A DNA stretch of 64,000 nt from an uncultured Bdellovibrionales bacterium. GTDB taxonomy: Bacteria; Bdellovibrionota_C; UBA2361; J135. This document shows positions 12,605 through 55,582 of this stretch, piece by piece. The position numbers and the translations under genes were made by a program. The stretch spans positions 8,976 through 72,975 of the forward strand of contig CAZFXN010000001.1 of NCBI GenBank assembly GCA_964523015.1, given 5' to 3'. A model generated the notes under the pieces. The model saw nothing but the letters and a program-made list of their open reading frames with translations. It was not told where the DNA came from and did not search any database. Each line of letters starts with the position of its first letter. The first letter of the stretch is position 1.

Positions 12605-12621
12605 TTTTTTGGAGGTATTTT

Positions 12622-16589: not shown

Positions 16590-16616
16590 TAATTGGGTGA
16601 TACTGTGCATAAAAGT

Positions 16617-16653: not shown

Positions 16654-16717
16654 AAATGATCTATTAGCGATATATAACAGTTGAATAATTTCAGCCCTAA
16701 GTTAGAATAGTACTATT

Positions 16718-17068
16718 ATGAACCGCCAGCACATACAAAGCCTACTCATTCTAGTTGCCTATGCTCTTATCTTAAGCATCTCTGTGACTGCTTACTCTAA
16801 TATTAATTTTATTGACCTCTCTGATTTTCCAGGCAATGCCCCTGGTTACTATAACGATTTACGGATCGGAGAAGTTGTGAACCGGATCCTTAACTACCTA
16901 GAAGGAAGCCTTGGTGCGTTGATTATGGTTAGTGCCGGATTGCTTGCAATCCTTAGTGCCGCTTTTGGAAACTATAGAGCTTCTATAGCACTCCTTGTGG
17001 TTGCGATCGGGCCATTCATTCTCCGGTCATTTGTTGGTAGCTTTTTTAATGATGAAAATATTCGGTAG
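16718..17068 (+). CDS. T4SS pilin-like protein, paralog 3 (divergent)
   Basis: 116 aa. Signal peptide, then the same two-helix core with ~50% identity (VVNRILNYLEGSLGALIMVSAGLLAILSAAFGNYRASIALLVVAIGPFILRSFVGSFFNDENIR). Confidence 0.5.
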   Translation: MNRQHIQSLLILVAYALILSISVTAYSNINFIDLSDFPGNAPGYYNDLRIGEVVNRILNYLEGSLGALIMVSAGLLAILSAAFGNYRASIALLVVAIGPFILRSFVGSFFNDENIR

Positions 17069-17103
17069 GTATTTCTTTATCTCGCTATCATGATCTTTCA
17101 AGA

Positions 17104-32157: not shown

Positions 32158-32335
32158 CAACTAGTAAACCGATCGGTAACATCTTCCCAGTTGATAACTT
32201 TATCAACCCAGAACGGGGATCTAGACGGATCGTCTTAGCACAAAGCATTAAATTATTCTGGTTTTCGTCCACAATACATACCCTACTCATCCGCCACCTC
32301 CTGCTTGTGTTCAAGTCGTGCTCGGGCGGATTGGA

Positions 32336-32569
32336 TCATGTCGTGGAGTTTCTTTTGTAAAAGATCCATTTGACCTTTATCGGCTGGCTTAAAATTGCGT
32401 CTTCAAGATCATTTTCGCTATAGGCTCCGGCTAAGCCTAAGAAATCTAAAAAATATGGATCGCCGAAGAATAGGTCGGGAGTGAGTGTCCCCTTTTCATG
32501 TAAGATATCCAGTTCAGTGGCTATTAGTGACTCTGGTTTTTTTGAAAGAGCTGTTCGTTCAAAAAGCAT
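32336..32569 (-). pseudogene. remnant of a DUF1016/YhcG-family PD-(D/E)xK nuclease gene
   Basis: The 77-aa ORF MLFERTALSKKPESLIATELDILHEKGTLTPDLFFGDPYFLDFLGLAGAYSENDLEDAIL matches the central region of ~350-aa YhcG proteins. No N-terminal or nuclease-core continuation is found in any frame. Confidence 0.45.
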
Positions 32570-32840
32570 TCCCTACACAGTGGGTATAGAATCTTCTGAT
32601 CAGGAAAAAGTTCATCCAAAGAGATAGGAAGCTCCTGTTAGCTTTGCCGCTAGATATCAATTGCGACACTTAGATATTGTCGATCATTTGTATTTGCGAC
32701 AGTTGCGATTTTAATACTCACAGATCAGGTTAATTATCTGAATTAACTTGAAAAGAATACCTCTCCTCTATTGTAGCAGTCAAGCATAGCAGTCAAGAAA
32801 ACAGGGAACTTTCAGCTAAAATTCCTGAATAATAAATGAG

Positions 32841-33515
32841 ATGAAACGAATATCAGAGATCCCAGAATCAGAACGTCCTCGTGAAAAGTTAGAAGCGCGA
32901 GGTGCAATGGTACTTAGCGACATAGAACTGTTAGCCATCCTGCTTGGATCAGGGAGGAAGGGCAAGAATGTGCTTACTCTTTCAAGCGAGATACTAGGTA
33001 TTATTGATCAGAAAAACGGTTCACTTCATGTTAGGGACCTAATAGAAACACATGGAATAGGTCGGGCCAAGGCGTGTTTGATCACAGCCGCAATGGAGTT
33101 TGCACGACGACGTATTCAATCACATCAAACCAAGATTCGCTCGGCTGAGGATATTATTCCACTACTTCGCCACTTTGCTGAGCGAAAACAGGAACATTTT
33201 ATTTGTATATCTTTAAATGGCGCCCACGAAGTTATCGCCACACGAGTAGTAACAGTTGGTCTAGTAAATAGCACCCAAGTTCATCCTAGAGAGGTTTTTG
33301 CTGAACCGATAGTAGATCGGGCCTGCGCAATTATAGTGGCCCACAATCATCCATCAGGAGACTGCACTCCAAGTCCAGAGGATTTTGAGATTACAAGAAT
33401 TCTTCGAGAAGCCGGACAATTACTAGGAATTAAATTACTGGATCACATTATATTTACTCCCTCAGCATCCTATAGCATTCACGAAAGGAAATTAATTTTG
33501 CCAGCTAAAAGGTAG
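32841..33515 (+). CDS. RadC-like JAB-domain protein (UPF0758)
   Basis: HhH-like N-terminus. JAMM-like motif VAHNHPSGDCTPSPED. Confidence 0.8.
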   Translation: MKRISEIPESERPREKLEARGAMVLSDIELLAILLGSGRKGKNVLTLSSEILGIIDQKNGSLHVRDLIETHGIGRAKACLITAAMEFARRRIQSHQTKIRSAEDIIPLLRHFAERKQEHFICISLNGAHEVIATRVVTVGLVNSTQVHPREVFAEPIVDRACAIIVAHNHPSGDCTPSPEDFEITRILREAGQLLGIKLLDHIIFTPSASYSIHERKLILPAKR

Positions 33516-33553
33516 TTATTGAATCCAATTTAACTGTAAGTTAACATACTCCG

Positions 33554-34609
33554 CATGTCAGAATCAATTAGCAACCTAACCCCTAACAGCTCCTGTCCCT
33601 GTGGGAGTATAGCCGTAAGTTTAAAAAATGTTGTCAGACCACCACCTCTAAAGCTGAGGAGTGCGCTCGTGAGGATATGCTCAGAGCTTTTGTCAGGGAG
33701 GCGGAAGCTGATTTAACACAAAAGTTTATGAGGTTCTTTTTTGAGCGGGTGGGAGATATAGATCTCGCTGAGGATTTAATAATGAGGTATCTTCCCGCAG
33801 AATTCGAATTTGGTAGAGAATTTGGTAGAGAAGGAAAAATTCTAACAAATGATGTTCTCGAGTATGGATTTTTCCCTTGGCTATTTTATACCCGGATATT
33901 TTTAGGCCCCGAGTTCAATCAGGTAGGGCTACCACTTCAACGACCATTTTCAGTGGGTGAATTCTTGATAGAGTTAAGTGGTAAGCAGTTATAACATCGT
34001 CAAAAACTATTAATTAAAGCTGCGGCAGATGCGCGATACCAAATTTATCAAGTAGTAGATGTTGATCCTGGCCGATCAGTTACCTTGCGCGAATTGGAGG
34101 GAGATACTACACATCGGCTAATAGAGTATAGCCTAAGTCAAGAGGTTCCTAAGGGTGTGTTTATCTTAACTAGGTTAGTTAAGATGTGTGGACGATCGTG
34201 GATGCTCGGTACTTATCCGATGGTAATACCGGCAGGATACCACAACACATTGCTAAATGATCTGACTCAAGAACGCCTCGATGATTTGGCTCAGATCGTA
34301 GAAGCAGAATATTCAGAACTGAATCGTGCAGATTCAAATTATGCAAAATTAGAAACAATTTCTGAGGATACAATAGTTCGTTATAGATTCTTCTCCGCTC
34401 TTAACCTCTCATTACAACCTCCTACCCTGACAAATACAGATGGTGAACCCATCGGAGTATTTGTAGATGCTTATACCATTGATCTAGCTCCCAATGGTCT
34501 TGCAAAAATTTTCAGTAAAGTGACACATGGTCTTGATAAACGAAAAACTGGACAAATAATTGAAATAGGCAAAGGTAGAGCTACGAGGAATAAAAACTAC
34601 CTGGTATAA
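33554..34609 (+). pseudogene. SEC-C motif protein gene disrupted by a frameshift and an in-frame TAA
   Basis: ATG at ~33554 gives MSESISNLTPNSSCPCGS. The remainder of the SEC-C motif (RKFKKCC) is in the +1 frame, 8 nt later. That frame continues as ORF 33677..33994. After the TAA at 33992, the same frame is open into ORF 34085..34609 (TTG start in the track). Confidence 0.4.
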
Positions 34610-34643
34610 TTGGATTAGTGCTAAATCAAAAAAGGCAGTTGTT

Positions 34644-35180
34644 TTGGGAGATCCGGTACAAGTCGCTGAGATCGCTGTCCAAGGTGATCAGGTCTTTGTA
34701 AGAGCTAACTCAGATCGACGCGCTGGACTATTTTATAAGCGTATCTTTGAGTTAGTAGGTGGCGATAATATTATCGATTACGAATATCTAGTTTCAACTT
34801 ACGATTTACAAATGGAGATCAGCGATAACGGGTTTCCAACTCCTAAGGATTCTGAAGGAAATTCTCTACGTGTCTTTGCCAAAAATGCGCGAGCAGAGAC
34901 TTCAGACGAGCTCCCAGAAGAGATCATGGCAGAGGTACAAAAGCACTTAGAGCGGTATTTACACGAGTGGCTAGACATCGCTATCCCTGCGCTTAGAAAC
35001 AAGACTCCACGTGAAGCGAGTAAAGACAAGGCTTTAAAACCTCTGCTTGAATCCCTACTTATAGACTACGAGTTCCGAGCTAAAAGCATGGTAGCCAATA
35101 AAAATAAAGGACATATTGCTATTACAAGCAACGACATCGCACGCCTTAGGGCTCAGCGAGGGATGACAACGGGGCAATAA
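34644..35180 (+). CDS. hypothetical protein
   Basis: 178-aa ORF. The track start is not ATG. Acidic, with no motif. Confidence 0.4.
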   Translation: MGDPVQVAEIAVQGDQVFVRANSDRRAGLFYKRIFELVGGDNIIDYEYLVSTYDLQMEISDNGFPTPKDSEGNSLRVFAKNARAETSDELPEEIMAEVQKHLERYLHEWLDIAIPALRNKTPREASKDKALKPLLESLLIDYEFRAKSMVANKNKGHIAITSNDIARLRAQRGMTTGQ

Positions 35181-35194
35181 AATTTTCACCCAAA

Positions 35195-35237
35195 AATTTC
35201 ACTGCCCCAATTTCACTGCTCCAATTTCACTGCCCCC
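35195..35237. repeat. three tandem copies of 14-nt unit AATTTCACTGC(C/T)CC
   Basis: Read directly. A degenerate fourth copy (aattttcaccc) is at 35181..35191. It lies in the convergent intergenic space between the 34644..35180 ORF and the sod gene. Confidence 0.85.
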
Positions 35238-36094: not shown

Positions 36095-37054
36095 ATGCCG
36101 ATGAACAAAGAGATGAGCAATGAGATGAATAAAGCACCGAATAATACAATCTTCTTTCTATCACTATTGTTATTGGCACTTCTTGTCAGTGGGACAAAGG
36201 CCTGTCAAGAGGACTATGATTTAGGATCAAGAACGAGTACTACACCAACATCTGAGAGTACTCCAACACCGACTCCATCTCCTACGCCTACTCCTACTCC
36301 AACACCAGAGGAGACAGTCACACCAACAGATACTCCAACGACAACACCGACTACCACACCAAGTGCAACACCTACTCCGACTCCAACTCCTGATGATGAG
36401 GATGAAGAGGAGGCGCAGGGCCAGGGACAGGCAAATGCTTTACAAAAAAGCTTAGCTGCAATCTCAGGCGGCAAAAAGAATCAAAAGATCGGCAACTGGG
36501 GAGATCAATGGAAGAAAAAAGATCCTGCACTTAATGGTGAGGAGATAGATCTCATCCCAGGCACAGTCTCCGATCCCGATAACGATGGCTATACAGACTG
36601 GCTTGAGAATTTATTTGGAACAGATCCATCAGATTACGGATCGTTCCCAAAAAATATAACAACAACAGCGTTAGCACAGCGACTTGTTGGGTTGGATGAT
36701 GACGGAGATGGATTATCCAATGAGCTTGAAAAGCAGCTCGGAACTCATGAAAACAATGGGGATTCTGATGGTGATGGCTCAAGAGATAATGCCGAAAAAC
36801 TATCCGGCACGGATCCACTAGACAAAGAGAGCAGGCCAAACGATCTAGATGGTGATGGATTAAGTGACAGTTTTGAAAATGCGCAGGGTACTAATCCTAC
36901 TAATCCAGATACAGATGATGATGGACTAAGAGATGATCTTGAATTGGCTTTAGGCACTAATTCATTCGATCCAGATACTGACAAAGATGGTATTTTAGAT
37001 GGTAAAGAAGTGGAATTAGGATCCGACCCTCTAAAACCAGAGCAGTCTCGATAA
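36095..37054 (+). CDS. secreted protein with Pro/Thr linker and thrombospondin type-3-like Ca-binding repeats
   Basis: Signal peptide, then TPTPSPTPTPTPEET...TPTPTPD. Six or more D-x-D-x-D-G repeats follow (DPDNDGYTDW, DDDGDGLSNE, DSDGDGSRDN, DLDGDGLSDS, DTDDDGLRDD, DTDKDGILDG). Confidence 0.6.
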   Translation: MPMNKEMSNEMNKAPNNTIFFLSLLLLALLVSGTKACQEDYDLGSRTSTTPTSESTPTPTPSPTPTPTPTPEETVTPTDTPTTTPTTTPSATPTPTPTPDDEDEEEAQGQGQANALQKSLAAISGGKKNQKIGNWGDQWKKKDPALNGEEIDLIPGTVSDPDNDGYTDWLENLFGTDPSDYGSFPKNITTTALAQRLVGLDDDGDGLSNELEKQLGTHENNGDSDGDGSRDNAEKLSGTDPLDKESRPNDLDGDGLSDSFENAQGTNPTNPDTDDDGLRDDLELALGTNSFDPDTDKDGILDGKEVELGSDPLKPEQSR

Positions 37055-41245: not shown

Positions 41246-41473
41246 GTGACAAAGATACCTTCAGATATCGCAAAAAAATACATGACCGCTTGGAAAAAGG
41301 CCTCTGTCCTTTTTGATAATCTTAGAGCAGAAGAATTATCAGCAATAGATACAACTCAGGGGCTGCTTAGTTTGCTTCCTGCTTTTAATGCCTGCGTCAA
41401 AGAGCGAGAACTTTCTCTTACCTCCGGATTAATTGAACAACAGAAAATTTTCTCTCGCGCATATTCTAAATGA
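41246..41473 (+). CDS. small hypothetical protein (possible partner of downstream nucleotidyltransferase-fold protein)
   Basis: 75 aa. Its stop overlaps the next start (ATGA). Confidence 0.3.
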   Translation: MTKIPSDIAKKYMTAWKKASVLFDNLRAEELSAIDTTQGLLSLLPAFNACVKERELSLTSGLIEQQKIFSRAYSK

Positions 41474-42042
41474 AAAATATATTTGAAGAGGCCTATGTTT
41501 TGCAAGAATTTCTTGTAAAGAAGAAATTCGACTTCTGTTTTATAGGAGGACTTGCTCTACAGAGATGGGGAGATCTGCGCACTACAAATGATATCGATCT
41601 GACCTTACTAACAGGATTCAAAAATGAAGAGAGATTCATTGATGCCTTACTTGAGGAATATGAAGGAAGAATTCCATCAGTAAGAGAAACTGCCCTTACA
41701 GCCCGCGTTTTATTACTTAAAACTAAATCAGGGGTTGGCATAGATATAGCTTTAGGTGGTTTGCCGTTTGAGGAATCCAGTATCAAGCGATCTTCTCAAT
41801 CTGAATATTTGCCCGGTATTTTTCTAAGAACGTGTTCAGCTGAGGATCTCATTATTCACAAAGCATTTGCGTCTCGAAGAAAAGATTGGCTTGATATTGA
41901 AGGAATAATTCTACGTCAAAAAAATATAGATTGGGAGTATATAGAAAAACAATTGAAACCTCTGCTAGATCTAAAAGAAGAGCCAGAGAACTGGGATACC
42001 TTACTCCAACTACAAAATTCACTGCTCAAAACAAGTAAGTAG
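41470..42042 (+). CDS. nucleotidyltransferase-fold protein
   Basis: FIGGLALQRWGDLRTTNDIDLTL resembles the minimal NTase G[GS]...D.D motif. Confidence 0.35.
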   Translation: MKNIFEEAYVLQEFLVKKKFDFCFIGGLALQRWGDLRTTNDIDLTLLTGFKNEERFIDALLEEYEGRIPSVRETALTARVLLLKTKSGVGIDIALGGLPFEESSIKRSSQSEYLPGIFLRTCSAEDLIIHKAFASRRKDWLDIEGIILRQKNIDWEYIEKQLKPLLDLKEEPENWDTLLQLQNSLLKTSK

Positions 42043-42123
42043 CGTTAGAATATCGATTTTTGGTAAGCGTTCACGTGGTATCGCGACAAACGCAAACCAG
42101 AAACATTCTCTACCAACCCCTCA

Positions 42124-42184
42124 GTGGGAGGCCCTGTACTAAATATAGGGCCTAACATTGCAATTGCGAGCTGGCGAGCAATTG
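42124..42184 (+). repeat. copy A of a conserved structured element (GTGGGAGG + stem-loop + AACATTGC + stem-loop)
   Basis: gtgggAGGCCCTgtactaaatatAGGGCCTAACATTGCaattgc...gcaattg. A second copy is at 51946..52015 with compensatory changes in the first stem. Confidence 0.6.
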
Positions 42185-42344
42185 ACTCAACAGCCATTTG
42201 CGGAGCAAATCCGGGGTGATAAAGACTAACCGTTCACAAAAACGACAAAAGCGATCAGCTTTTGTCCCCTGGAATTACCACAAACTCACAATCTTAACCA
42301 CTTGATTGCAAGAACTATTTGTTACCCCGTGAACGGTTACGATT

Positions 42345-43853
42345 TTATTGTCGTGATTTTAAAAACGCTCTGGCATCTGCCACAAGTGAATCAGGAAAAT
42401 TTAAAGCGTATCCATGACCGACTCGCATCTTTGTAAATGGATCAGTCTCAATCTCTTCGGCACAATCAGAGATAATTTGTGAAGTAATTAGGTCGCTATT
42501 AGCACTGAGATACTCCTGATCATTTTTTAAATCTCCCTGCCAGGCTACTTCAAGTGAGTTATCGATATTAACAAACCAGCCCTTATGAATAGCTCTTACA
42601 AGTAGCTCTCTAGATGACATTGATAAGGCATCTGTATGTTTAAACCAACCAACATCCTGAAGGGCAACTTTACGAATAGCAAAATTCATCCCAGTAAATG
42701 GAGAAGAAAAAAGTTTATCAACTTGAACATGTCCGTCTGGGCCCTTTAATGATTCTTTAAGGGGACTCATTGAGCCACTTGGAATAATAATCGAAACTCG
42801 ATCTTCACGGAAAATTTTTATCGCTTCTAAAGCAAAATTTGAAGGAACAGTTGCCCCAACATGTAAAAAGGAGAGATAAAGGGAGCAAGAGGACTGTGCG
42901 CCAACATTCAGGGCTGCCCCAAAGGATCGTGTCAAACTTCTTACATACCTAAGTCGAGAACTGATTTTCCCAATCTCACCATCCTTTAAAGAGAGTAATT
43001 TGCGAAGCTCTTTGGCGACTTTTCTATCCTCAGAGTAATCAACAAGTAACACCTCAAAGTTTGTCATTGATTGCTGTGATAAATTCTCCAAAGTTTTCTT
43101 TAAAGCATCATCACAAGCATTAACCGGAACAATATAAGAGAATCCCCTTTCAACTATGTTAGCTGCGTGGGAATACCGATTAAAGATCCGAGACATCTCT
43201 GGCAGAAGCGGATCATTACCCTGACCGGTTTTATTATCTTCATACATTCGGTAATAAGAGAAAACTTTAGGAATCTGCTTTACGGTATGTCGTCCCCAAA
43301 CCCGCATCCATAGATCATAATCCATGCAGTAATAAAGCTCTTCATCAAGAAGCTTACCATCATGTCGACGAACCTCTTCAATTACTGATCTTCTAAAAAA
43401 TATCGAGGGTTGTGTAGGAATTGAGTAAGAGCACCAGTACTTCAGTAGATCATGCCAAGTTCTTGGAACGTTAACGACAGTGTAATCAACTTTTCCCGCG
43501 CGATCAGTAATCTGACACGCGCCAACAATCATCGAATGGATCTTTAGCTCTTCGGCCACCAATGGAAAAATATTCGGCTCATACCAATCATCAGAATTAA
43601 GCCAAGTGACGATATCACCAGTCGACTTTGCAAAACCCTTATTTAAGGCATCGGTTTGGCCGTTATCTGGCTCACTTGTCCAGATCAGATGTTTGTATGA
43701 TTTAAGGATCTCAACGGTATTATCGGTCGATCCTCCATCAACAACTATATGCTCAACATTTGGATAATCTTGGGCCAGGACTGATTCAATCGTATCTCGA
43801 ATAAATTCCCCCTGATTAAATGAGGGAGTGATAATCGAGATCTTCGACATCAT
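42345..43853 (-). CDS. two-domain family-2 glycosyltransferase
   Basis: ISIITPSFNQGEFIRDTIESVLAQDYPNVEHIVVDGGSTDNT. Second GT-like half FEVLLVDYSEDR. Confidence 0.7.
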   Translation of the reverse strand: MMSKISIITPSFNQGEFIRDTIESVLAQDYPNVEHIVVDGGSTDNTVEILKSYKHLIWTSEPDNGQTDALNKGFAKSTGDIVTWLNSDDWYEPNIFPLVAEELKIHSMIVGACQITDRAGKVDYTVVNVPRTWHDLLKYWCSYSIPTQPSIFFRRSVIEEVRRHDGKLLDEELYYCMDYDLWMRVWGRHTVKQIPKVFSYYRMYEDNKTGQGNDPLLPEMSRIFNRYSHAANIVERGFSYIVPVNACDDALKKTLENLSQQSMTNFEVLLVDYSEDRKVAKELRKLLSLKDGEIGKISSRLRYVRSLTRSFGAALNVGAQSSCSLYLSFLHVGATVPSNFALEAIKIFREDRVSIIIPSGSMSPLKESLKGPDGHVQVDKLFSSPFTGMNFAIRKVALQDVGWFKHTDALSMSSRELLVRAIHKGWFVNIDNSLEVAWQGDLKNDQEYLSANSDLITSQIISDCAEEIETDPFTKMRVGHGYALNFPDSLVADARAFLKSRQ

Positions 43854-44626
43854 TACGCTGCAGTCTCCTGAACTACTTCTTCGCTTTCTTCAGAGTTTTC
43901 TTCAGCACCTTCATCATTGGCCATTTCAGACTCAACAACTTCAGGCCACAAACAAACTATCTGCTCATCGGCTTTAAAATAAACCCCTAATTCATCGCCA
44001 TATCGCTGAAATCCGTACCGAACAGCACCGCCGTTATCACGTAGAAGATCTCTACAAGCTTTCTCCTCTCCCTTAAACCAGAGCTCCTGGTATCTTAAAA
44101 GAAGATCGCTATCATCAAGTAACTCTCGATCGATCATAGCTAAGCATCGTGTATCGACAAAGATTGTACCAAGCAACTCAGTACTCTCACGAGTCAACTC
44201 CTGTCCCTCTGTTCTACTTCCCTCAGGATGCACAACGATAGAGAACTCAAAAGGATCCCGTTCGATTCTATAAAGACCTGGTTCTACTTTAACTACACAG
44301 CCACCAAATTCCTGAACCAAGCTATCTCGGTCCTCTGGTGCAGCATCAACACTTTTGATAACAGCATCTACAAACTGTGGGTTGGCCAACATAAATTGGT
44401 CGATAATTATAAGCTGTCCACTCTCAACTGAGATTCTCTCTCGCTTATTACCACTTTGAGAAGCTTCTCTTGGATTACGAGAACGTCCACCACGGTTAGA
44501 CCTACCGTATCCACCAGTGCGACGTCCGCCGCCACCGCTTCTTAATCGATAAGAGGAACCGCCTCTACTACTACTACTACCACCACCACTACGTCCTCCT
44601 CGGCCTCTTGAATTTCGATAATTCAT
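43853..44626 (-). CDS. protein with N-terminal RGG/Gly-Arg-Ser-rich low-complexity region and acidic C-terminal tail
   Basis: The first 65 aa are RGRGGRSGGGSSSSRGGSSYRLRSGGGGRRTGGYGRSNRGGRSRNPRE. The C-terminus is EGAEENSEESEEVVQETAA. The stop overlaps the GT2 start (TAATG). Confidence 0.55.
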   Translation of the reverse strand: MNYRNSRGRGGRSGGGSSSSRGGSSYRLRSGGGGRRTGGYGRSNRGGRSRNPREASQSGNKRERISVESGQLIIIDQFMLANPQFVDAVIKSVDAAPEDRDSLVQEFGGCVVKVEPGLYRIERDPFEFSIVVHPEGSRTEGQELTRESTELLGTIFVDTRCLAMIDRELLDDSDLLLRYQELWFKGEEKACRDLLRDNGGAVRYGFQRYGDELGVYFKADEQIVCLWPEVVESEMANDEGAEENSEESEEVVQETAA

Positions 44627-44834
44627 ACTTCAACTCTATGTAACTAATAACAAAAATAATAAGCACCCTGCTCGGGCACCAAACAAACTCAAAGAAGCCT
44701 TGTATCATAAATTAGTACTAATATGCCAATTAGCCACTATGTAATTGCTTAAGCACTATCAAAGTCAGGTCGATAATTCATTATAGGTTAGATTTATACA
44801 ATCCGTAGTATTTTCAGTAGGTTATTTACAAAAA

Positions 44835-45338
44835 ATGAATCAGACATGTATCATAAATTCTGAAGGGGTCTGCTTTGATCCTGATGATATCACCCTTCTA
44901 GGAGTTTATTCTGATGAGTTATCTCTTTTTAGAGCAAAAAGCGGATGGACCAAGGTTTTAGAGTCCAACTTTATGCTTGAAGATACGCATGACTTTTCAA
45001 TTGAGATAGTAAAAGACTATGAGTCCCTTAGATTTCGACTAGCTTGCAGATTTAACACTGCTTGCGGACGGTATGCATTTTGGCGAATTACTAACTATCA
45101 GGCTCCAGAAGCTCAATATGAGATAGAAACTGCTCATATTCCTAACTCTAGCTCGCGACAACTTGATTTAATTTCAGCACCTGATCTACTTCCGCTTTAT
45201 AGTACACCGTTAGTAGTTACAGGACTCTCTGAGCAGCGTAGTAGTTCAGTACTTGCAAAGGTACTCTCTCAGATCAGTAAATTTCGTAGTAGGCTTCTTA
45301 GTGGGCTTCGTAGAAAGCTTGATAGTAAGTTCTCCTAA
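44835..45338 (+). CDS. hypothetical protein
   Basis: 167-aa ORF. No motif. Confidence 0.4.
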   Translation: MNQTCIINSEGVCFDPDDITLLGVYSDELSLFRAKSGWTKVLESNFMLEDTHDFSIEIVKDYESLRFRLACRFNTACGRYAFWRITNYQAPEAQYEIETAHIPNSSSRQLDLISAPDLLPLYSTPLVVTGLSEQRSSSVLAKVLSQISKFRSRLLSGLRRKLDSKFS

Positions 45339-45478
45339 AAATACCTACATCGTATCTACGGTTCTTTACCATTCTTTATACCACCATTGTATCTTCAATC
45401 TGATTAAGCAACTTGTTGAAGATTCTATCTAATAACAATAGGTGGGTCTGTTGATAACGATCTTTTCATTCGAATAAA

Positions 45479-46408
45479 TTGAGTAAGCTTATGCCACGCC
45501 TAAATAAAGATGGTAAATTTATAATCTCTGCCAGTGAAGTTGGCAGCTATACAGTATGTCCAGAGAGTTGGCGTTTACGCAGCGTGTTAGCTGTGAACAG
45601 AGAAGATACCGATCGCTCAAAAAAAGGGATGGTTAAGCACGATGAATGGACTGTTACCTATGACGAGCATCTCTTTTTAGCTCGTAGTTCTAGAATTGTT
45701 TTAGCCTTACTTATCTTAGCAATTGCTGCATTTCTTTTAATTAGTGAACACTCGATTGTTTTACCTTAGGTTTTTATGAATGAATCCATCAAAGAATTCT
45801 CGATCGAAACTCTAAGTCAGATCGTCCTTCTTGACACTGATTTTATCTTACTCGCAGTTTTAGTGGCTGTAGTTGTTATTCTCTACGATAGTTTTTATTA
45901 CGTTTCCCGAAAGAAGCTAAAAGAGACCGGAATTCAACCAAAAGCTGTTGCGCATTCAATAGACGGCAGTAAGAATCTACCGATTAAAAATTATATCTCA
46001 GAGATTCAAGGTTTAGCTGGACGTCCTGATGCATTAATTATTGAAAATGGGTTTATAATTCCAGTAGAGAGAAAACCATTAGCACGCAAATTACGGGATA
46101 GGTACGTGGCTCAACTCTTAGTCTACATGCGATTAATCGAAGAGTTTGAGGGGAAGAAACCACCGTACGGTTACTTAATCCTTGGCGGTAATTGTCGGCG
46201 AATTAAAATAATGAATACCCCAAAACGTCAAATATGGGTTCAAGGTATTATAGATGAGATGCGTGCTATTTTAGCTGGCCAAGAATCCCGACCAACACCA
46301 GAAGCACGAAAATGCTCAAAGTGCGATGTTAAAAACCACTGCAAATTTGATGCTTCAAAAAGTAGTGATATGGCCGTACAGATAAATGCGCAGATCAATA
46401 AGAGATAG
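45479..46408 (+). pseudogene. Cas4/DUF83-like PD-(D/E)xK nuclease interrupted by in-frame TAG, with internal TM hairpin
   Basis: ORFs 45479..45769 and 45776..46408 are in the same frame, separated by TAG-GTT-TTT. The N-terminal part has a YxxCP-like motif (GSYTVCPESWRLRSV). The C-terminal part has GRPDALI, IPVERKP (ExK), QLLVYMRLIEE (QxxxY) and CSKCDVKNHC. Hydrophobic helices flank the stop. Confidence 0.4.
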
Positions 46409-46474
46409 ATAGTGTTGTGGTAGGTGGAAATCCCTTGCGGTGAACTCTCAGGGCTCTCTTTCAAAATCACAGAA

Positions 46475-46939
46475 TCATAGCTCTTTCTCTAAGATAATTC
46501 CATGGTGCTTCTCTCTAATTTTTTTGTAAACGCCCGTAATATCAAACCCTTCACGGATGTTCAGAAGTAACATGCCACGATACTTGTTCTTGGTTTGGGT
46601 TCTAATAAATTTAAATCCTTTCGCCTTAGCAATCTCGTGTTGTCTTTTCAAAAGGGATCGAGCAATGCCTTTTCTGCGAAACCCCTCCATGACTCCACCG
46701 TTCCAACTGTAGAAATACTCATTGTCCGAGTGATACTCAAAGCCAATCTTATAGGCGCATGGTTTGCCCTCGAAATATCCGACCAATATGGTCAGATTGG
46801 GGCGAGTTTCAAGCTCTCTCTTTAGAATTTCTCGACTGAGAGGCTCTTCGAAGATCTTAGCCTCAAGTTCAATGAGCAGGTTCAGGACCGACTCGGTCAA
46901 TTCAGTAAACTCTTTAATTTCAAATTTATCCATAAGCAA
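46475..46939 (-). CDS. GNAT family N-acetyltransferase
   Basis: Motif A FRRKGIARSLLKRQHEIAKAKGFKFI. Confidence 0.7.
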   Translation of the reverse strand: MLMDKFEIKEFTELTESVLNLLIELEAKIFEEPLSREILKRELETRPNLTILVGYFEGKPCAYKIGFEYHSDNEYFYSWNGGVMEGFRRKGIARSLLKRQHEIAKAKGFKFIRTQTKNKYRGMLLLNIREGFDITGVYKKIREKHHGIILEKEL

Positions 46940-46972
46940 TAACTCTCAGGCTGACAATATCAAGGTTAGCAG

Positions 46973-48142
46973 TCAAATAGTCGAACTAACTCCTAATATT
47001 TTCAATATTCCTTTATCCCACGACATACTTGTAATTGGACCAATCTCTTTTTCGAATGAATCACGACTAAGGCAGTATGCTCCAGAGTGTTTCATATCAG
47101 CAGCCAAAGTTTTAAATGATCCTAGGTCCTCTGGGTAAATTGTTCTAGCAGATTTAATTTCGACAAGAATCGGATCTTTGTTAGGCAACTCAACTATAAG
47201 ATCTATCTCAGCTCCATCTTTAGTTCGTAGATATGAGAATTTAGCTCTTTTCTTAAAATAACTGTTTAGTCGAATGAACTCAAGTATTACATGTTGCTCA
47301 AAAGTATCTCCATATAATGAAGTACTTTCATTTAGAGCTGATTCATTTGTTCTTAAAATTGCACGTGGCACACCGCAATCAAAAAAGTAAAACTTTGGTG
47401 CTTGAGTTTGCTGTTTTCTTATCGACCGACTATATGCTGGTAATATCACACCAATATACGTCTCTTCTAATATTGCAAAATACTCCTTTATGGTGTCAGG
47501 AGTAACACCAACATCCCGTCCAATACTAGAATAGTTCAATATCTTAGTATTCATTTGTGCGGCAACATCAAGAAATCTCCTAAATGGTGGCAACTGTCTT
47601 ATAAGTTGCTCAGCAACAATCTCTTCCTTTAAATAAGTATCTACGTAGGAATGAAGATACTCAATCTTTAACTCCCGACTAGTTAGCTTAGTAAGACTGG
47701 GGAGCGTTCCCCAATCTAGTGCTGACTGAAGATCAAAATCCTCTTTAAGCTCAAGATATGTTAGCGGATACAGTTCGTATAATAGCGCTCTGCCTGCAAG
47801 TAGGTTTGCATTCCCACGTTTTAATTTTCTAGAGCTAGACCCACTAAGGATAAAGATTAAATCATTCTCTTCAATGAGCAGATGCACAACATTAAGTAAG
47901 TTAGGAACTCTTTGAACTTCATCAATAATAATCAGTGATTTAGGAGGCGCTTTTCTGACTCTTTCAACTATCGAATCCGGTCTCTGGCTCAACGAATAAT
48001 ATTCATCATCATTAAGGAGATTTACGGAGAGGTAGGCCTGCGATGCAAATCTCTCCCTTAATATCGTAGATTTTCCTACGGCACGTGCTCCAAACAGGAA
48101 AAAACTACTGTCTTTTAAGGGGGTTATTAATCTATCTATCAT
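46973..48142 (-). CDS. AAA-type ATPase with DUF4143-like domain (paralog of 26233..27450)
   Basis: Walker A LFGARAVGKST and Walker B LIIIDEVQ. Confidence 0.65.
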   Translation of the reverse strand: MIDRLITPLKDSSFFLFGARAVGKSTILRERFASQAYLSVNLLNDDEYYSLSQRPDSIVERVRKAPPKSLIIIDEVQRVPNLLNVVHLLIEENDLIFILSGSSSRKLKRGNANLLAGRALLYELYPLTYLELKEDFDLQSALDWGTLPSLTKLTSRELKIEYLHSYVDTYLKEEIVAEQLIRQLPPFRRFLDVAAQMNTKILNYSSIGRDVGVTPDTIKEYFAILEETYIGVILPAYSRSIRKQQTQAPKFYFFDCGVPRAILRTNESALNESTSLYGDTFEQHVILEFIRLNSYFKKRAKFSYLRTKDGAEIDLIVELPNKDPILVEIKSARTIYPEDLGSFKTLAADMKHSGAYCLSRDSFEKEIGPITSMSWDKGILKILGVSSTI

Positions 48143-48231
48143 ACTCGTTATTTATCGCATAAATCACGAGTGTTGTCTACATAAATTCATTCAGGATTCC
48201 ATGGATGGAAAGAAGTCAACGAACTCTAAGG

Positions 48232-49533
48232 CTAAGTCCCATCATCCTCCAACACCTTATCCCCTTCTGAAACTGCAATGATAGCTGAGCCGACACTATC
48301 GCCCCAGACATTGACAGAGGTACGAACCATATCAAGCACACGATCGACGACGACAATTAGTTGGATTCCTTCTAGTGGTAAATTAACGACTCCTAAAACC
48401 ATGGTCATCATCACTAGACCTGCGCCTGGAATTCCTGCTGCGCCAATAGCTGAAAAGGTGGCGGTTATAAAGATAGCAAACTGTTGTGGGAATGTAAGAT
48501 CAACTCCATACATATTAGCGATAAAGATGGCCGCGATAGCTTCATAGATAGCTGTACCATCCATATTAGCAGTAGCGCCAAGAGGGGCTACGAATCCAGC
48601 TACCTTATTTGACACTCCTGCTCTCTTCTCTAAACAGTCAATCGTTATCGGTAAAGTCATTGAGGAGGACGCAGTCGAAAATGATGTAGATATAGCTGGG
48701 AAAAGAGCCTTAAAAAGCTTCAATGGATTAACTTTAAATACTAATGCTAGGAGTGATAAGCTGATAACACCATGAAAAAACAACCCGCATAGTACAGTTA
48801 CTGTGTAAGATCCGATATGAGTGCCTAATTCTACTAACCGGTCGTCATTGTAAAACTCTAAGGTCAGATTTGCTACTAAGGAAAAAATTCCAAATGGCGC
48901 AACATACATCACCTTATCAACCATCCAAATAATCGCCCCAAAGAGACAATCAACTAACTCTCTAACTGTATGAGTAACCTTATGTTGGGTATTTAAAATT
49001 GCTAATCCCAAAAAGATGGAGAAAAATATAAGTCCTAATATATTTCCTTTAGAAGCTGCTTCGAAGATATTTTTAGGAAAGATTCCTTTTATAACTTCAG
49101 TTAATCCTCCATGTCCCGCTACCTGCGCTACCTGCCCTACTTCTGGTATAATATTAACAGCTGCAACTAGACCCCCAGATTTTCCTGGCTCTATGATATT
49201 CACTAATATGAGTCCAGTTAGTACTGCTATGGCAGTTGTAGCAGTATAATAAACGATCGCTTTTAATCCTAACCTGCCTAAGCTTTCAGTATCTCCTAGA
49301 TTTAAGATTCCAGAGATCATTGAAACTACAACCACCGGCACAATTAGCATCATGAGAAGTCGTAAAAAGATCTCTCCTAGGATTTTTATCGAAGGAACTA
49401 GCTCTGGTAGAAAAACTCCGCCCAATGCTCCAAACAGAATTGAAAGCATCATTAGGGTGTTAAGATGTCCTTTGTAAAAGGTAAATATCTTTTGAATAAA
49501 AGATTTATGCAAAATTCCCCTGATTCGCAGCAA
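48232..49533 (-). CDS. dicarboxylate/amino acid:cation symporter (DAACS/GltP family)
   Basis: 8-10 TM helices with characteristic reentrant-loop-like motifs (SSS..TLP, AxxxxGxPGAG). Confidence 0.75.
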   Translation of the reverse strand: MLRIRGILHKSFIQKIFTFYKGHLNTLMMLSILFGALGGVFLPELVPSIKILGEIFLRLLMMLIVPVVVVSMISGILNLGDTESLGRLGLKAIVYYTATTAIAVLTGLILVNIIEPGKSGGLVAAVNIIPEVGQVAQVAGHGGLTEVIKGIFPKNIFEAASKGNILGLIFFSIFLGLAILNTQHKVTHTVRELVDCLFGAIIWMVDKVMYVAPFGIFSLVANLTLEFYNDDRLVELGTHIGSYTVTVLCGLFFHGVISLSLLALVFKVNPLKLFKALFPAISTSFSTASSSMTLPITIDCLEKRAGVSNKVAGFVAPLGATANMDGTAIYEAIAAIFIANMYGVDLTFPQQFAIFITATFSAIGAAGIPGAGLVMMTMVLGVVNLPLEGIQLIVVVDRVLDMVRTSVNVWGDSVGSAIIAVSEGDKVLEDDGT

Positions 49534-50314
49534 AGAGCGAAAGCTGTGAAGATGGAATTCCTAAGAAAAGCATAATTTCCTTTATTACCTCATGCACTTC
49601 ATCAGGCCAACTTTGCGGATCAAGGATATCAAGGTTTACGCTTAGCGGTGCAATATCTAAAGAGAGAACTTCATTTCTCTCTGGATGAGCCACATTTAAA
49701 AGTTTTGTTTTGGGCTCCCAGGCAAATCGAGCAACAGTACCAGATGACTTCTTTACCCCTGTCTCAAAGCTTTCTGCTAAAAAATCCCTGCCACTGATTA
49801 TAGTTAAATCAGGATTTGCTTGTTTTGCAAAAGTTTCTCCTACTTTGATCATTCTAGCGGCTGATAAAAATAGATTTCTTAAATTCTGCTCATTTCCAGG
49901 TAACCGAAGCCCCCCTTCAACAGTACCGTATCTATTTTTAAGAGAGCTTCGACACAGCCAAAGAATATTTTCCCCCTCAAATGTAACATCGGAGATATTT
50001 CTAAGCTCAAAACCCTGGGCCCACCTAAATGTGGAATCTAAATCTTTAGAGGTAACATATGATGAAATGTAGTTGATCGATATCTCAGTATTCTCTGACA
50101 AATCTTCTGCTTCTTTTTTACAACCAAAGCACTCTCCAAATCTCCTCTTTAATCCACTTTCTGGAACAACTCGTCGATCACAAACTGTAAAACAACCATT
50201 GCAGGAGAGCGAAGTGACAACATGGCCAAAATCAGAGACATAACTAGCTAGCAGAGATATCAGTGGTGTTTCAGGAGAGGCCAAACTATACGGATTAAAT
50301 AATGCTATCTTCAT
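49505..50314 (-). CDS. hypothetical Cys-rich protein
   Basis: CNGCFTVCDRR...FGECFGCKK paired CxxC motifs (Zn-ribbon-like). Overlaps the transporter gene by 29 nt. Confidence 0.45.
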   Translation of the reverse strand: MKIALFNPYSLASPETPLISLLASYVSDFGHVVTSLSCNGCFTVCDRRVVPESGLKRRFGECFGCKKEAEDLSENTEISINYISSYVTSKDLDSTFRWAQGFELRNISDVTFEGENILWLCRSSLKNRYGTVEGGLRLPGNEQNLRNLFLSAARMIKVGETFAKQANPDLTIISGRDFLAESFETGVKKSSGTVARFAWEPKTKLLNVAHPERNEVLSLDIAPLSVNLDILDPQSWPDEVHEVIKEIMLFLGIPSSQLSLFAANQGNFA

Positions 50315-51057
50315 ATTGCCTGCACTGAGGTAATTTTTGACGTGTTAGTATCCCTATAAATTAAATAATACGATATTGAGTCTGTCGGGAGATAATCTGT
50401 TGTGACAGAGAGAGATTTCATAAGGCCCCAGCTCATCTCTTGAGGGTATAGGTTTGTAAAAGTGGCTCCTTCTAATTTTCGCTCAACTACAGAGGCTGGT
50501 GGAACCTGTCCAAGAGGCACAATTGATTTTACCACCTCTCCGCCTTTACTCTCTTTTATATAGATACCGGGACGAAGCTCAGACTGAGTTCCATTCACTA
50601 TAACTATTGATGGAGTCACTGAAGCATCTTTCATCAGTAAATGAGGAGTCGGTGTTGTTAATGGTGGAGTTACGTTCCCTTGTACCTCATCTTGCATGAT
50701 CATTTTGCGAGGTGCAAATTTTAAAGGTCTTTCAATATTAGAAAACTCAATTACACATTGAGAGGCTGAAACATCAGACCGTGTTTGACTTGAGTAGACA
50801 TCTACCTCAAGAGCAACCATATTTGTAGGATCAGCTGATTCTAACGGGAAAAGTGATGCTATTCTGACACCATCTGGATGAAATAATCGGGCCCCATCAA
50901 TCGCAAGACGAGATCTTTCAACGCCACGTCCATATACAGTAAATGCCATTTCAACTGGATATGGTGTTGCTGCTCCTGGGGTAGCTGGCAGGAAATGTAC
51001 TGTGGTCTCAGCCGCACTCTCAGGATTTGCAAAAACTAGCCAACGAACAGCCTTCAT
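50311..51057 (-). CDS. hypothetical protein
   Basis: 248-aa ORF. ATGA overlap with the downstream gene. Confidence 0.45.
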   Translation of the reverse strand: MKAVRWLVFANPESAAETTVHFLPATPGAATPYPVEMAFTVYGRGVERSRLAIDGARLFHPDGVRIASLFPLESADPTNMVALEVDVYSSQTRSDVSASQCVIEFSNIERPLKFAPRKMIMQDEVQGNVTPPLTTPTPHLLMKDASVTPSIVIVNGTQSELRPGIYIKESKGGEVVKSIVPLGQVPPASVVERKLEGATFTNLYPQEMSWGLMKSLSVTTDYLPTDSISYYLIYRDTNTSKITSVQAI

Positions 51058-51070
51058 TAAGATATCCTAT

Positions 51071-51733
51071 TTAATTCACCATAATATAATTACACCCATT
51101 TTCTGTCGCATATTGTTCAAACATGCCAACTGCCAAAGCGTTCTCCGTTTTACAACGTGTCCTTACATATGAAGAGATTCTCTGCTTCATACTCAAATCT
51201 GTAATTTCATCAAATTCAGCTTCAACGCTTATCAGTTTTGTAGTGTAAGGTTTCAGCTCATAGTTATTTTCCGGAGCTCTATTTGGAGCAATCAGTCTTA
51301 CAATCGCTTCAATGGGATTTTCTGTTGGATTTGAAAGAATGAGATATGAGCTAATAGATCTTGAAAACAACTTTGGAAAGAATGCTGGCTCTAATGTTGA
51401 CACCTTTCTAAGTGGTCCAGCAAAAAAAGTATTAAAGGCCGATTTAAGGCGAACACCAACCGCACATGAGTCAGGCATGGTTAACGACATTAACGAATGC
51501 CTAAATCCTAAATCAGGTAAAAGCTCCCCTATTAAATTATCAAGCTCAACTGAGAGCGCCTTGCCTGGATCGATTCCAATAGAGAGCTCCTTAAAGAGCT
51601 CTCCCTTAGGAGAATACAACTTTAAAAGGTACTCAGCTGCGCTACCTTGCTTAATGCCATCCTCATTTCCAGAGAGATGCAGTGTAGAGCTTAGGTCTCC
51701 ACCACAGGGCCCCCAATAATTAAGTGTCTTCAC
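51071..51733 (-). CDS. hypothetical protein
   Basis: 220-aa ORF, first gene of a 4-gene minus-strand operon. Confidence 0.45.
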   Translation of the reverse strand: MKTLNYWGPCGGDLSSTLHLSGNEDGIKQGSAAEYLLKLYSPKGELFKELSIGIDPGKALSVELDNLIGELLPDLGFRHSLMSLTMPDSCAVGVRLKSAFNTFFAGPLRKVSTLEPAFFPKLFSRSISSYLILSNPTENPIEAIVRLIAPNRAPENNYELKPYTTKLISVEAEFDEITDLSMKQRISSYVRTRCKTENALAVGMFEQYATENGCNYIMVN

Positions 51734-51945
51734 TTAACAGTTCCATATTACTAAAAAATGTTTAAAAAAATGGTAACAGAATAACCGCGTTTGGCCTAGA
51801 GTATATTTAAGTTAGTTAAACTACTCTTATCCCCTACTACTAATTCAGAGAAATTTCATACTCTTGGAAGATCCGATATCAGTTGTAAAATGTTTGAGAC
51901 AAGTACTGTATATGCCCCTTTAAGGGGCCCCCAAGCGAAGCTTGG

Positions 51946-52015
51946 GTGGGGAGGCTCTTTAGCACGAAGTGCAATAAGAGCCTAACATTGCTGACGCTAG
52001 CTAGCGTAGCGTCAG
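51946..52015 (+). repeat. copy B of the conserved structured element
   Basis: gtggggAGGCTCTTtagcacgaagtgcaatAAGAGCCTAACATTGCtgacgcta..tagcgtcag. Preceded by two more hairpins (gcccctttaaggggc; cccaagcGAAgcttggg). Confidence 0.6.
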
Positions 52016-52213
52016 ATTCAACATTAAGATAAACAGCAGTTGTCATAAGTAAAAAAGTAAAGCCGGTAGGCTTTTCAAGAAAGCTTTACAACAAATTCTA
52101 CTTACCAAACCCACATATTTTCATCTCAATCTCTATGACAACTGATATAACTCTTTAATCAAATCGGCAACTTGCCGATAAACATAATAACGACAAGCCA
52201 TTAGAAAGGTAAA

Positions 52214-52528: not shown

Positions 52529-52695
52529 CCATTATCTCCGCTTAGTGATCAGATCATAAATTTTTTCTATACATTTTTGCTATCCATTTTTTCTATGCAT
52601 TTTTTCTTTGATAATGGTTTCTCTTCTTGATACTCTTTCATTTCACTAAAGAATTAAGCTAAAAAATCAAGATTGAACAATTCGAAAGAGGAATC

Positions 52696-54777: not shown

Positions 54778-55176
54778 CTACAAAGCTTTTAGTAACTTTT
54801 CTATATCTTTTAGTCCAGTATTCAAAACTTGAATGACCTTTGAATAATCGATTTTTGAGTAACCGTGAGTTAAAACATTTCTAAAGCCGACCATCTTTAG
54901 TAAATTATCACAAAGCTTGTCATCAATAACTTTATTATCACGAAGGATAACGATAGCTTCATGCATAGATGCTGGGCGCTGAAATTCTTTCAGATGACAA
55001 TATGATTCGGCAAGATCAATTGCAGCTTGGGTAACCAAAAAAAGAGAACGCTCAACTGCCAGTCGCTTTTCATCATTAGCAAGTAAAAGCTTTTCAGTGA
55101 TACTTGAATACCGCCGTGCCTGCTTAAGAAACTTCTTAACAAGTTGAATTTTTGATTCTAAGTCTCTCTTAGTCAT
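54778..55176 (-). CDS. hepT: HepT-like HEPN toxin (DUF86)
   Basis: C-terminal R-x4-H motif FRNVLTHGY. Immediately downstream of an MntA-like gene. Confidence 0.75.
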   Translation of the reverse strand: MTKRDLESKIQLVKKFLKQARRYSSITEKLLLANDEKRLAVERSLFLVTQAAIDLAESYCHLKEFQRPASMHEAIVILRDNKVIDDKLCDNLLKMVGFRNVLTHGYSKIDYSKVIQVLNTGLKDIEKLLKAL

Positions 55177-55180
55177 AGAA

Positions 55181-55582
55181 CTAATCTTTATAATACTGAC
55201 TCTCTAGTATCCGAAAATCTCGATATTCTCCGATGATAGCTAATTCAACGTCAAGTCTTACCTTTGAAACTTCGTATATAACCACTCCGTCTCGAACGAT
55301 ATTGTACTTTAAGATGATGCTATCTAAATGGTTTAAAATAACGACATCCACTTTGTCGGTATTTAAAATAACCGGTATCTGTCCCATTAAAGTAAGCAAC
55401 AAATCAAAGGCTGCGTCTCTTTTTTTAGGATCAATATAAACAGCAAAGTCATAGTCACTATTCTTTCCCGATTTGCCGGTTGCGCGGGAGCCAAAAAGAT
55501 AAACGAGCTTGATTGCTTTATATTTCTGAAAGAGGGCATTCAGTTTGGTTTTGGTGCTTTTATTAAATTTTTTAGTGCTCAT
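55181..55582 (-). CDS. mntA: MntA-like minimal nucleotidyltransferase antitoxin
   Basis: GSRATG...DYDFAVYI (GS-x9-13-DxD). Confidence 0.75.
   Translation of the reverse strand: MSTKKFNKSTKTKLNALFQKYKAIKLVYLFGSRATGKSGKNSDYDFAVYIDPKKRDAAFDLLLTLMGQIPVILNTDKVDVVILNHLDSIILKYNIVRDGVVIYEVSKVRLDVELAIIGEYRDFRILESQYYKD

Follow-up and report, generated by a model that had tools for sequence, protein, structure and literature searches.

The ERIC (ERIC/IRU) repeats of enterobacteria have a conserved central region. For Nostoc, Elhai et al. 2008 reportedly described small dispersed repeats (SDR), tiny hairpin modules that are nested in other repeats and whose stems are kept by paired changes. The CIR repeats of Caulobacter and Brucella consist of two stem-loop arms and a conserved linker with GANTC; the Correia repeats of Neisseria come in forms of 155 and 107 bp that are a 50-bp internal segment apart; and the hallmarks of miniature inverted-repeat transposable elements (MITEs) include TA ends and, for classical bacterial MITEs, a size below 200 bp (PMC2229807). 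Here we describe two ~276-bp inverted-repeat units, A and B, in a 64-kb stretch of DNA from an uncultured Bdellovibrionales bacterium (the whole stretch is called the window), together with a twin-hairpin element of ~75 nt, the core, which both units contain. We conclude, at a probability of roughly 0.6, that A and B are subfamilies of a family of short intergenic MITEs in uncultured Bdellovibrionota and that the hairpin elements are the conserved internal modules of this family.

Like Correia/NEMIS, the units described here are short, noncoding and intergenic, carry terminal inverted repeats with 5'-TA-3' at both ends, and occur in numerous near-identical copies with stable stem-loop folds, and a transposase is known for neither. 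The long and short Correia forms (155/107 bp) have a parallel here in two units of a third subfamily, C1 with the core and C2 without it. Correia repeats begin with TATAG, as do the termini of B; beyond TATAG no sequence likeness to the 24-26-bp Correia repeat is apparent. By comparison with Correia, however, the units have a greater length (196-278 bp), the termini of the subfamilies are wholly different while the internal core is conserved, the left repeat has a further copy inside A and B, and the host phylum is Bdellovibrionota.

The two hairpins and the conserved linker recall CIR, and GANTC (as GACTC or GATTC) stands at the foot of hairpin 2 in three cores, but CIR lacks the terminal inverted repeats present in our units, and no relationship in sequence to CIR or ERIC/IRU was apparent. 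Depletion of GANTC as a methylation site found no support, and there is no sign of a CcrM-type role (230 observed and 229 expected sites in the window). With REP, BIME and REPIN (PMC3116915), the family shares intergenic mosaics of small hairpins with conserved motifs between them, inverted doublets, and the compensatory maintenance of stems. Unlike these, it has dissimilar hairpins within one element and terminal inverted repeats with TA ends, it lacks a GTAG-type motif at the hairpin foot, and no RAYT was seen among the open reading frames (ORFs) scanned, a scan outside which some small ORFs fell. A REP-like element nevertheless came closest among the candidates of the initial annotation; its att-like candidate was dropped, as the copies lie in inverted-repeat units of their own and B occurs at at least six other loci. 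The SDR of Nostoc, like the core, are very small hairpin modules nested in other repeats and hairpins, with stems kept by paired changes, but they measure 21-27 nt, whereas the module here is ~75 nt long with two hairpins and conserved linkers, and organism and sequences differ. Cyanobacterial repeats of the SDR or HIP1 kind were ruled out, HIP1 not being enriched and the named relatives of IspG and of the SDF transporter being Oligoflexia, Bdellovibrionales or Bdellovibrionota. The family fits the MITE kind, with Correia, CIR, ERIC and REP as its nearest analogues, and by the features tested it is a member of none of these.

The twin-hairpin core and its two units

The initial annotation had described two related structured copies, each with GTGGG(G)AGG and two hairpins, and this description held. 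Both copies lie on the + strand and share the order GTGGG(G)AGG, hairpin 1, AACATTG, hairpin 2, GAYTCAACA:

42124-42192, + strand: core A, GTGGGAGG, stem AGGCCCTGTA/TATAGGGCCT, AACATTG, stem CAATTGC/GCAATTG, ACTCAACA
42129-42153, + strand: hairpin 1 of core A (10 bp, loop CTAAA), preceded by GTGGG and followed by the linker AACATTG (42154-42160)
42161-42184, + strand: hairpin 2 of core A (7 bp, loop GAGCTGGCGA), followed by the tail ACTCAACA
51946-52023, + strand: core B, GTGGGGAGG, stem AGGCTCTT/AAGAGCCT, AACATTG, stem CTGACGCTA/TAGCGTCAG, ATTCAACA
51952-51983, + strand: hairpin 1 of core B (8 bp), preceded by GTGGGG, with GCAC-GAA-GTGC (51962-51972) nested in its loop
51984-51990, + strand: linker AACATTG of core B
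51991-52015, + strand: hairpin 2 of core B (9 bp), followed by the tail ATTCAACA

Position 52015 is the end of hairpin 2 in core B, and the conserved tail extends to 52023. The window has exactly two sites for the pattern GGGAGG-N(15-40)-CCTAACATTGC, each on the + strand, and 100 dinucleotide shuffles gave no site; CCTAACATTGC at up to one mismatch gave no third site within the window. Both cores fold more stably than shuffles on the + strand (z = -4.0 for A and -5.9 for B), and covariance-model scores are 74.5 bits for core A and 90.9 bits for core B, with E values of 1e-13 to 1e-16 for the window copies.

A compensatory change in stem 1, already noticed in the initial annotation, was recovered at pair 5, which is C-G in A versus T-A in B (one pair of hairpin 1). 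Stem 2, where the covariation had been missed along with the tail GAYTCAACA, has four of seven pairs changed on both sides, and all of them are still paired. The copies are homologous, with stems maintained by paired changes, which bears out the earlier proposal of selection on structure. Equally correct was the report of a hairpin stack near copy B that includes two GAA-loop hairpins; the stacked hairpins around core B lie at 51914-51928, 51930-51946 and 51962-51972. Folding energies on the + versus the - strand are -27.5/-19.5 kcal/mol for A, -32.2/-30.2 for B and -16.9/-11.6 for core C, described below, and by our own count across the three cores G-T wobbles fall on the + strand in five of six cases. 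The + strand bias of folding argues for one particular strand, and RNA and single-stranded DNA are not separable by it. Because d(GCGAAGC) is a classic extra-stable DNA mini-hairpin, the recurrence of C-GNA-G triloop hairpins may be taken as a weak hint of folding at the DNA level. No T-runs follow the core hairpins of A and B on either strand.

Each core is part of a longer unit:

42063-42340, + strand: unit A, whole element (278 bp; TA...TA at 42064/42339), between a convergent gene pair
42064-42074, + strand: left terminal copy of the unit A repeat motif, TAAGCGTTCAC, from a motif search
42196-42210, + strand: small hairpin ATTTGC-GGA-GCAAAT of the C-GNA-G triloop type, within the fold of unit A
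42227-42237, + strand: internal direct copy of the unit A repeat motif, TAACCGTTCAC, of which the right end is the perfect complement
42244-42266, - strand: terminator-like hairpin of unit A, GACAAAAGC-TGATC-GCTTTTGTC, then GTTTTTGTG
42329-42339, - strand: right terminal inverted copy of the unit A repeat motif, from a motif search
51875-52150, + strand: unit B, whole element (276 bp), between a divergent gene pair
51875-51913, + strand: left end of unit B, with the repeat motif and its inverted copy
51914-52033, + strand: central 120-nt block of unit B, with two small hairpins (51914-51928 and 51930-51946) and core B
52032-52045, + strand: internal direct copy of the unit B repeat motif, AACAGCAGTTGTCA
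52059-52074, - strand: terminator-like hairpin of unit B, AAAGCC-TACC-GGCTTT, then ACTTTTTTAC
52136-52149, - strand: right terminal inverted copy of the unit B repeat motif, TATATCAGTTGTCA

The 18-nt inverted repeat of unit A (42063-42080 / 42323-42340) has 16 of 18 matches, where the maximum in 60 dinucleotide shuffles was 14 of 18, and the fold of the whole unit has z = -6.9. Searched at up to one mismatch, the unit A motif TAACCGTTCAC gave three matches versus 0.48 expected; as TAAsCGTTCAC it stands in direct orientation at the left end and at 42227, and as an inverted copy at the right end. Unit B is delimited by the points at which similarity to the copies in L121, L126, L137 and L139 ends (TATAGTAATTGTCA...TGACAACTGCTATA; L numbers denote contigs and loci), and TATAGTAATTGTCA / TGACAACTGCTATA are its terminal inverted repeats at the common limits of five full copies. 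Its motif TATAGYARTTGTCA occurs four times, at the left end, inverted beside it, internally at 52032 and inverted at the right end. In the multi-copy consensus the left end of B is a 37-nt perfect palindrome, which is degenerate in the window copy. Both units have a minus-strand terminator-like hairpin at the equivalent place (42266-42244 in A, 52074-52059 in B), and that of A sits downstream of the minus-strand GT2 gene 42345-43853. TA is found at both ends of A, B, C1 and C2, and the terminal-repeat motifs listed for the family are TATAGYARTTGTCA, TAASCGTTCAC and TCCGCTCACGG. The repeat motifs of units A and B are unrelated to each other: the two have their architecture and core in common, but not their terminal sequences.

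Neither a conserved promoter nor a + strand terminator was found in units A and B. Short ORFs across the core run in different frames in A, B and C, in units of 125-278 bp; no Shine-Dalgarno sequence plus start codon and no small ORF is conserved in the core, and a peptide translated across it had no match among 15 billion called proteins. The Rfam scan that had been proposed for a known RNA family came back empty, with no hits at gathering thresholds in the window and, for L118 and L126 even at E <= 10, a best E of at least 1.1, far below gathering scores. A blastn comparison of both units with plasmids gave no match. In viral contigs, a loose three-part pattern returned two chance matches without hairpins and a family-specific pattern returned none. 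Over genome contigs, GGGAGG-N(15-45)-CCTAACATTGC proved too loose a pattern (115 rows, all of them chance matches without hairpins), and the output of a relaxed motif-plus-hairpin descriptor search was too noisy for use.

Dispersed copies of unit B and a third subfamily

Copies of unit B were found by a three-part pattern scan of metagenome contigs. True copies in that scan come only from one Joint Genome Institute (JGI) sample series (Ga0163147, Ga0163149, Ga0163153 and Ga0163155), which also contains fragments of the window at 100% identity. Besides the window, the unit is present at at least six loci (L121/L140, which are one locus, L126, L127, L133, L134, L137 and L139) that have only the ~276-bp unit in common with the window and with one another, their flanks being unrelated. 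Identity is 98.7-100% among the dispersed copies and ~90% between them and the window copy, and similarity among B copies ends exactly at TATAG...CTATA, with no direct repeat longer than the terminal TA visible in their flanks. All copies are intergenic, and four of the five that could be resolved lie in divergent spacers, versus ~1.25 expected (p~0.016, our own arithmetic from the ORF layout). In L137 the unit ends 1 nt ahead of the ATG of a CysS-like gene, which rules out a regular ~70-nt spacing to the downstream start codon. Near-identical copies at many unrelated sites point to recent spread.

Several contigs end in or beside the elements, L119 at 42144, L120 at 51943, and L133, L134 and L140 inside the core of B, which agrees with assembly graphs being broken at repeats or perfect palindromes. 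Breaks in or beside the elements, including at 42299-42311, recur in independent assemblies, both metagenome and Logan.

Across the unit, the window copy of B has 30 differences from the multi-copy consensus, 10 in the left 39 nt, 20 in the right 117 nt and none in the central 120 nt (51914-52033; Fisher p = 1.1e-8 for zero changes in this block). The arms have thus diverged by 17-26%, versus 0 of 120 positions in the centre. Variant collapse in assembly might erase a few single-nucleotide polymorphisms, but it does not convert ~20% divergence to identity. The internal twin-hairpin module, not the termini, is the conserved part of the repeat family, and we infer that it has a function.

A third subfamily, C, is present in a distant relative, with and without the core. 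A search by nhmmer with the B unit matched L163:13369-13470 (E about 0.002), on a Bdellovibrionota contig; the SDF transporters of this contig and of the window share 62% identity. The covariance model R2, made from the A and B cores of the window alone, scored L163:13369-13445 at 41 bits (E = 5.4e-8), and the next match in 95 kb had E > 1. With the three-sequence model R1, 724 kb of DNA from 100 unrelated genomes, all with a chance GGGAGG...CCTAACATTGC, gave no match at E <= 1, and ~260 kb of Bdellovibrionota loci yielded no more copies to the covariance model. Core C reads AGGGACTT-(AAATC-GAA-GATTT)-AAGTACCT-AATAGGG-CAAACGC-GAGCGAGCGGA-GCGTTTG-ATTCGAGT and lies in unit C1 (L163:13314-13509) within two concentric inverted repeats with TA ends. 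In a three-way alignment of the cores, 97.7% of the pair cells are standard and five pairs are changed on both sides, compared with 24-44% paired in slid controls. Stem covariation in three sequences is suggestive rather than proof. Sequence is preserved among A, B and C in the linkers and at the top of hairpin 2 (GC-K-AGC-NN-GCG-N-AGC).

Unit C2 (L163:15500-15625, minus strand), 2 kb from C1, is a scaffold without the core, in which ~81 nt are replaced by TTGTAAC. The terminal inverted repeats of C1 and C2 are 15 nt long, and their outer repeats differ by paired changes, with a G-T wobble retained at the equivalent position. As the scaffold exists both with the core (C1) and without it (C2), the core is therefore a discrete module that can be present or absent. 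A spacer that is filled in one genome can likewise be short or different at the orthologous place in others: the spacer between the PMT and epimerase genes measures 268 nt with C1 in L163, 49 nt in L170 and 253 nt in L162. At L162:13335-13425, in the spacer orthologous to the C1 site, we observed an unrelated palindrome, GATATACATGCGGCA ... TGCCGCATGTATAC, with its halves ~60 nt apart; different inverted-repeat elements therefore occupy one spacer across genomes.

Two further sites are recorded here as side observations. The rnpA-yidC spacer of the same contig as C1 (L163:16170-16345) is another mosaic of small hairpins, with CAAGTGC-GAA-GCACTTG, with GGGAGG followed by a long stem ACATATACTCAGCCA...TGGCTGAGTATGT, and with TCAAAAGCGATTAGCTTTTGA, a near match to the terminator hairpin of unit A, GACAAAAGCGATCAGCTTTTGTC (window 42244-42266). 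This suggests that hairpin modules may be shared as a library across genera. Right after a Memo-family gene, L169:21030-21100 contains a long-range stem, AGGCCCTA...TAGGGCCT, which is the hairpin 1 stem sequence of copy A, followed by CGCTAAGTCAACATAG, whose TCAACAT is shared with copy B. This site gets only 9.9 bits (E=3) from the covariance model and may be a degenerate relative without hairpin 2.

The 9.8-kb block and its surroundings

The initial annotation had also raised the possibility that the two copies are att-like ends of a mobile 9.8-kb segment. This idea failed on the different terminal motifs of the two copies, on the absence of an integrase from the ORFs scanned and on a syntenic gene inside the block. 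Among the ORFs scanned in and around the block, Pfam and NCBIfam identified no integrase, recombinase or transposase. The relatives L164, L167 and L168 are colinear with the window over 17.1-38.8 kb, and L168:20573-21106 matches window 43943-44476 with 76% protein identity and in the same order. Because its counterpart in L168 stands in the same order as the upstream conserved genes, gene 43853-44626 inside the block is ancestral, and its synteny there speaks against a variably present 9.8-kb segment. Rearrangement is confined to 38.9-43.8 kb, where unit A lies together with an AbiEii-type toxin pair and two GT2 genes. The block, whose genes include a Cas4/PD-(D/E)XK nuclease, a DUF4143 ATPase and a GNAT protein, has a flat GC content.

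The nearest named relatives of IspG and of the SDF transporter are metagenome-assembled genomes labelled Oligoflexia, Deltaproteobacteria, Bdellovibrionales and Bdellovibrionota, and the closest sequenced relative, with 82% identity in IspG, comes from the same sample series. Homologues of the SDF transporter were of no use for synteny, the nearest being 62% identical and not colinear; IspG homologues gave the colinear loci.

Other features of the window were noted in passing. Two toxin-antitoxin-like pairs are present, one at 41246-42042 directly left of unit A (an AbiEii/DUF6036 nucleotidyltransferase and a 75-aa upstream ORF) and one at 54778-55582 (HepT and MNT, a Polbeta nucleotidyltransferase). 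At 52560-52607, ~3.6 tandem copies of the 13-nt unit ATTTTTTCTATRC lie between a 104-aa ORF downstream of unit B and a chorismate mutase gene. Two segments are missing from the colinear L164 and L168, 26233-28582 with a DUF4143/AAA_14 ATPase and a periplasmic binding protein, and 32200-35200 with RadC and three small ORFs of unknown kind; a second DUF4143 ATPase is encoded at 46973-48142. In the left part, 1-17100, a TraC/VirB4-like type IV secretion ATPase is encoded at 8577-11351 (203 bits to TIGR02746, below cutoff), and with colinearity starting only at ~17.1 kb this part may be a conjugative or integrative element. A 255-nt direct repeat of 78% identity (14648-14902 and 16335-16589) falls in ORFs 14459-14902 and 16158-16589, which are probably paralogous genes, and a Pro/Thr-rich repeat with a 12-nt period occupies 36228-36397 in the gene for a bacterial TSP3-repeat protein (36095-37054).

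Weighing the explanations

The MITE reading brings together the structure of the units, the dispersal of B, a distant third member, the presence or absence of the core, and a core more conserved than its arms. Terminal inverted repeats, a small size without coding capacity and, for B, dispersed copies with unrelated flanks are all MITE features that the units show. If the reading is right, the units would be moved in trans by a transposase encoded elsewhere, for which the TA ends would suggest a cut-and-paste enzyme like those of IS630/Tc1-mariner. The ~75-nt core would be a discrete module that works as a folded single strand of the + strand, because the stems co-vary around single-stranded linkers and a hairpin 2 top of constant sequence. 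It would most likely be active when co-transcribed with its neighbours, as a structure for RNA processing or stability of the kind proposed for Correia/NEMIS; alternatively, it could be a binding structure for a host or transposase factor that is needed for propagation. The 9.8-kb spacing of A and B would then be a coincidence of two independent insertions with no joint action.

Several points weigh against this reading. Neither the window nor ~0.3 Mb of related loci yielded a transposase with matching ends, and the TA at the unit ends is only a putative target duplication. Unit A is seen at one locus, and its mobility is presumed from that of B, whose ~99%-alike copies could come from the genome of the window or from a sister species in the same samples. 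At 276 bp the units exceed the <200 bp of classical bacterial MITEs (PMC2229807). The termini differ fully among A, B and C while the centre is kept, whereas ordinary MITEs conserve their termini best; this points to selection on the core, which purely selfish cut-and-paste does not predict.

One other reading, a minority possibility in our judgment, sees the core as a functional RNA or single-stranded-DNA module under strong purifying selection across genera of Bdellovibrionota, carried by unrelated scaffolds or moving between them; if true, it would be a new class of noncoding RNA spread on MITEs or a new ultra-small nested mobile module. That the twin-hairpin core, or the whole unit of ~200-280 nt with its terminal repeats paired as a closing stem, is a structured noncoding RNA gene or a cis-regulatory RNA family of Bdellovibrionota under purifying selection, with the inverted-repeat arms as helices of the RNA or as MITE vehicles carrying it, is the main rival, which we regard as unlikely. 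Stems that co-vary around constant linkers and a constant hairpin 2 top in A, B and C would fit such an RNA, as would a core kept at 100% where the arms differ by 17-26%, the better + strand folding of three cores with their + strand G-T wobbles, and the co-varying terminal repeats of C1 and C2 with a wobble at the equivalent position; in A and B, the minus-strand terminator-like hairpins would halt antisense transcription short of the core. DNA palindromes and hairpins of single-stranded DNA also maintain complementarity, however, so covariation alone is no proof of RNA, and the independent sequences number only three. An RNA family is further disfavoured by the lack of an Rfam match even at E<=10, of a conserved promoter and of a + strand terminator, by neighbours that differ from copy to copy (CysS, epimerase, unknowns), and by copies in convergent, divergent and tandem spacers. 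The sharp inverted-repeat limits of unit B and its ~99% identity at unrelated loci are the behaviour of mobile DNA.

Recognition of the hairpins as single-stranded DNA by an HUH/Y1 enzyme, as in REP/REPIN-like (RAYT) or IS200/IS605-derived elements, appears improbable, even though the hairpins are strand-asymmetric with conserved flanking single-stranded motifs (TCAA beside hairpin 2 in A and B), C-GNA-G triloop mini-hairpins recur (AAGCGAAGCTT, GCACGAAGTGC, TTGCGGAGCAA and ATCGAAGAT), and the B consensus has a REPIN-like inverted doublet at its left end. A given Y1 enzyme recognises near-identical hairpins at the two ends, yet hairpins 1 and 2 are unlike within an element and differ among A, B and C; TCAA is not retained in C (TCGA), no GTAG-type motif stands at the hairpin foot, no Y1_Tnp/RAYT (PF01797-type) match was found among the window ORFs scanned, and IS200/IS605 elements do not have the true terminal inverted repeats and TA ends seen here. 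An IS200/IS605-derived palindrome-associated element was rejected on the unrelated sequences of hairpins 1 and 2 and on the terminal inverted repeats. Far less credible still are att-like sites or the ends of a composite element bounding a mobile 9.8-kb segment: the shared orientation at 9.8 kb, the break in colinearity with L168 over 38.9-43.8 kb, which contains copy A, and the defence-like genes of the block (Cas4/PD-(D/E)XK nuclease, DUF4143 ATPase, GNAT) would agree with it, but the copies have only a ~70-nt core in common, with different stems and flanking repeats, each sits inside its own complete unit, and B occurs alone at six or more other loci, as does C1 in L163. Nor does the block show a GC shift, or an integrase, recombinase or transposase in it or beside it, and its gene 43853-44626 is syntenic in L168 with a 76% identical protein. 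Phage or island att sites were rejected on the same gene, on the lack of an integrase and on the differences of the copies in both stems. Integron attC sites were likewise discarded, as GCCTAAC and AYTCAAC fit RYYYAAC but are direct, not inverted, and no integrase was found. That the resemblance is due to chance or to ordinary intrinsic terminators we consider next to impossible; both copies do lie in hairpin-rich intergenic spacers with terminator-like hairpins nearby, but the pattern is absent from all 100 shuffles, a third independent copy was found at E 5e-8, 724 kb of control DNA gave no match to the model, and T-runs are missing after the core hairpins.

In the searchable literature there is no earlier description of short mobile repeats in Bdellovibrio-like bacteria. 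Read as MITEs, the family is a marker of genome plasticity for an uncultured lineage, and it may account for the breaks in this organism's metagenome contigs at these sites. The core can now be censused with a covariance model. Should the core have a function of its own as RNA or single-stranded DNA, selfish DNA would here be spreading a compact structured element.

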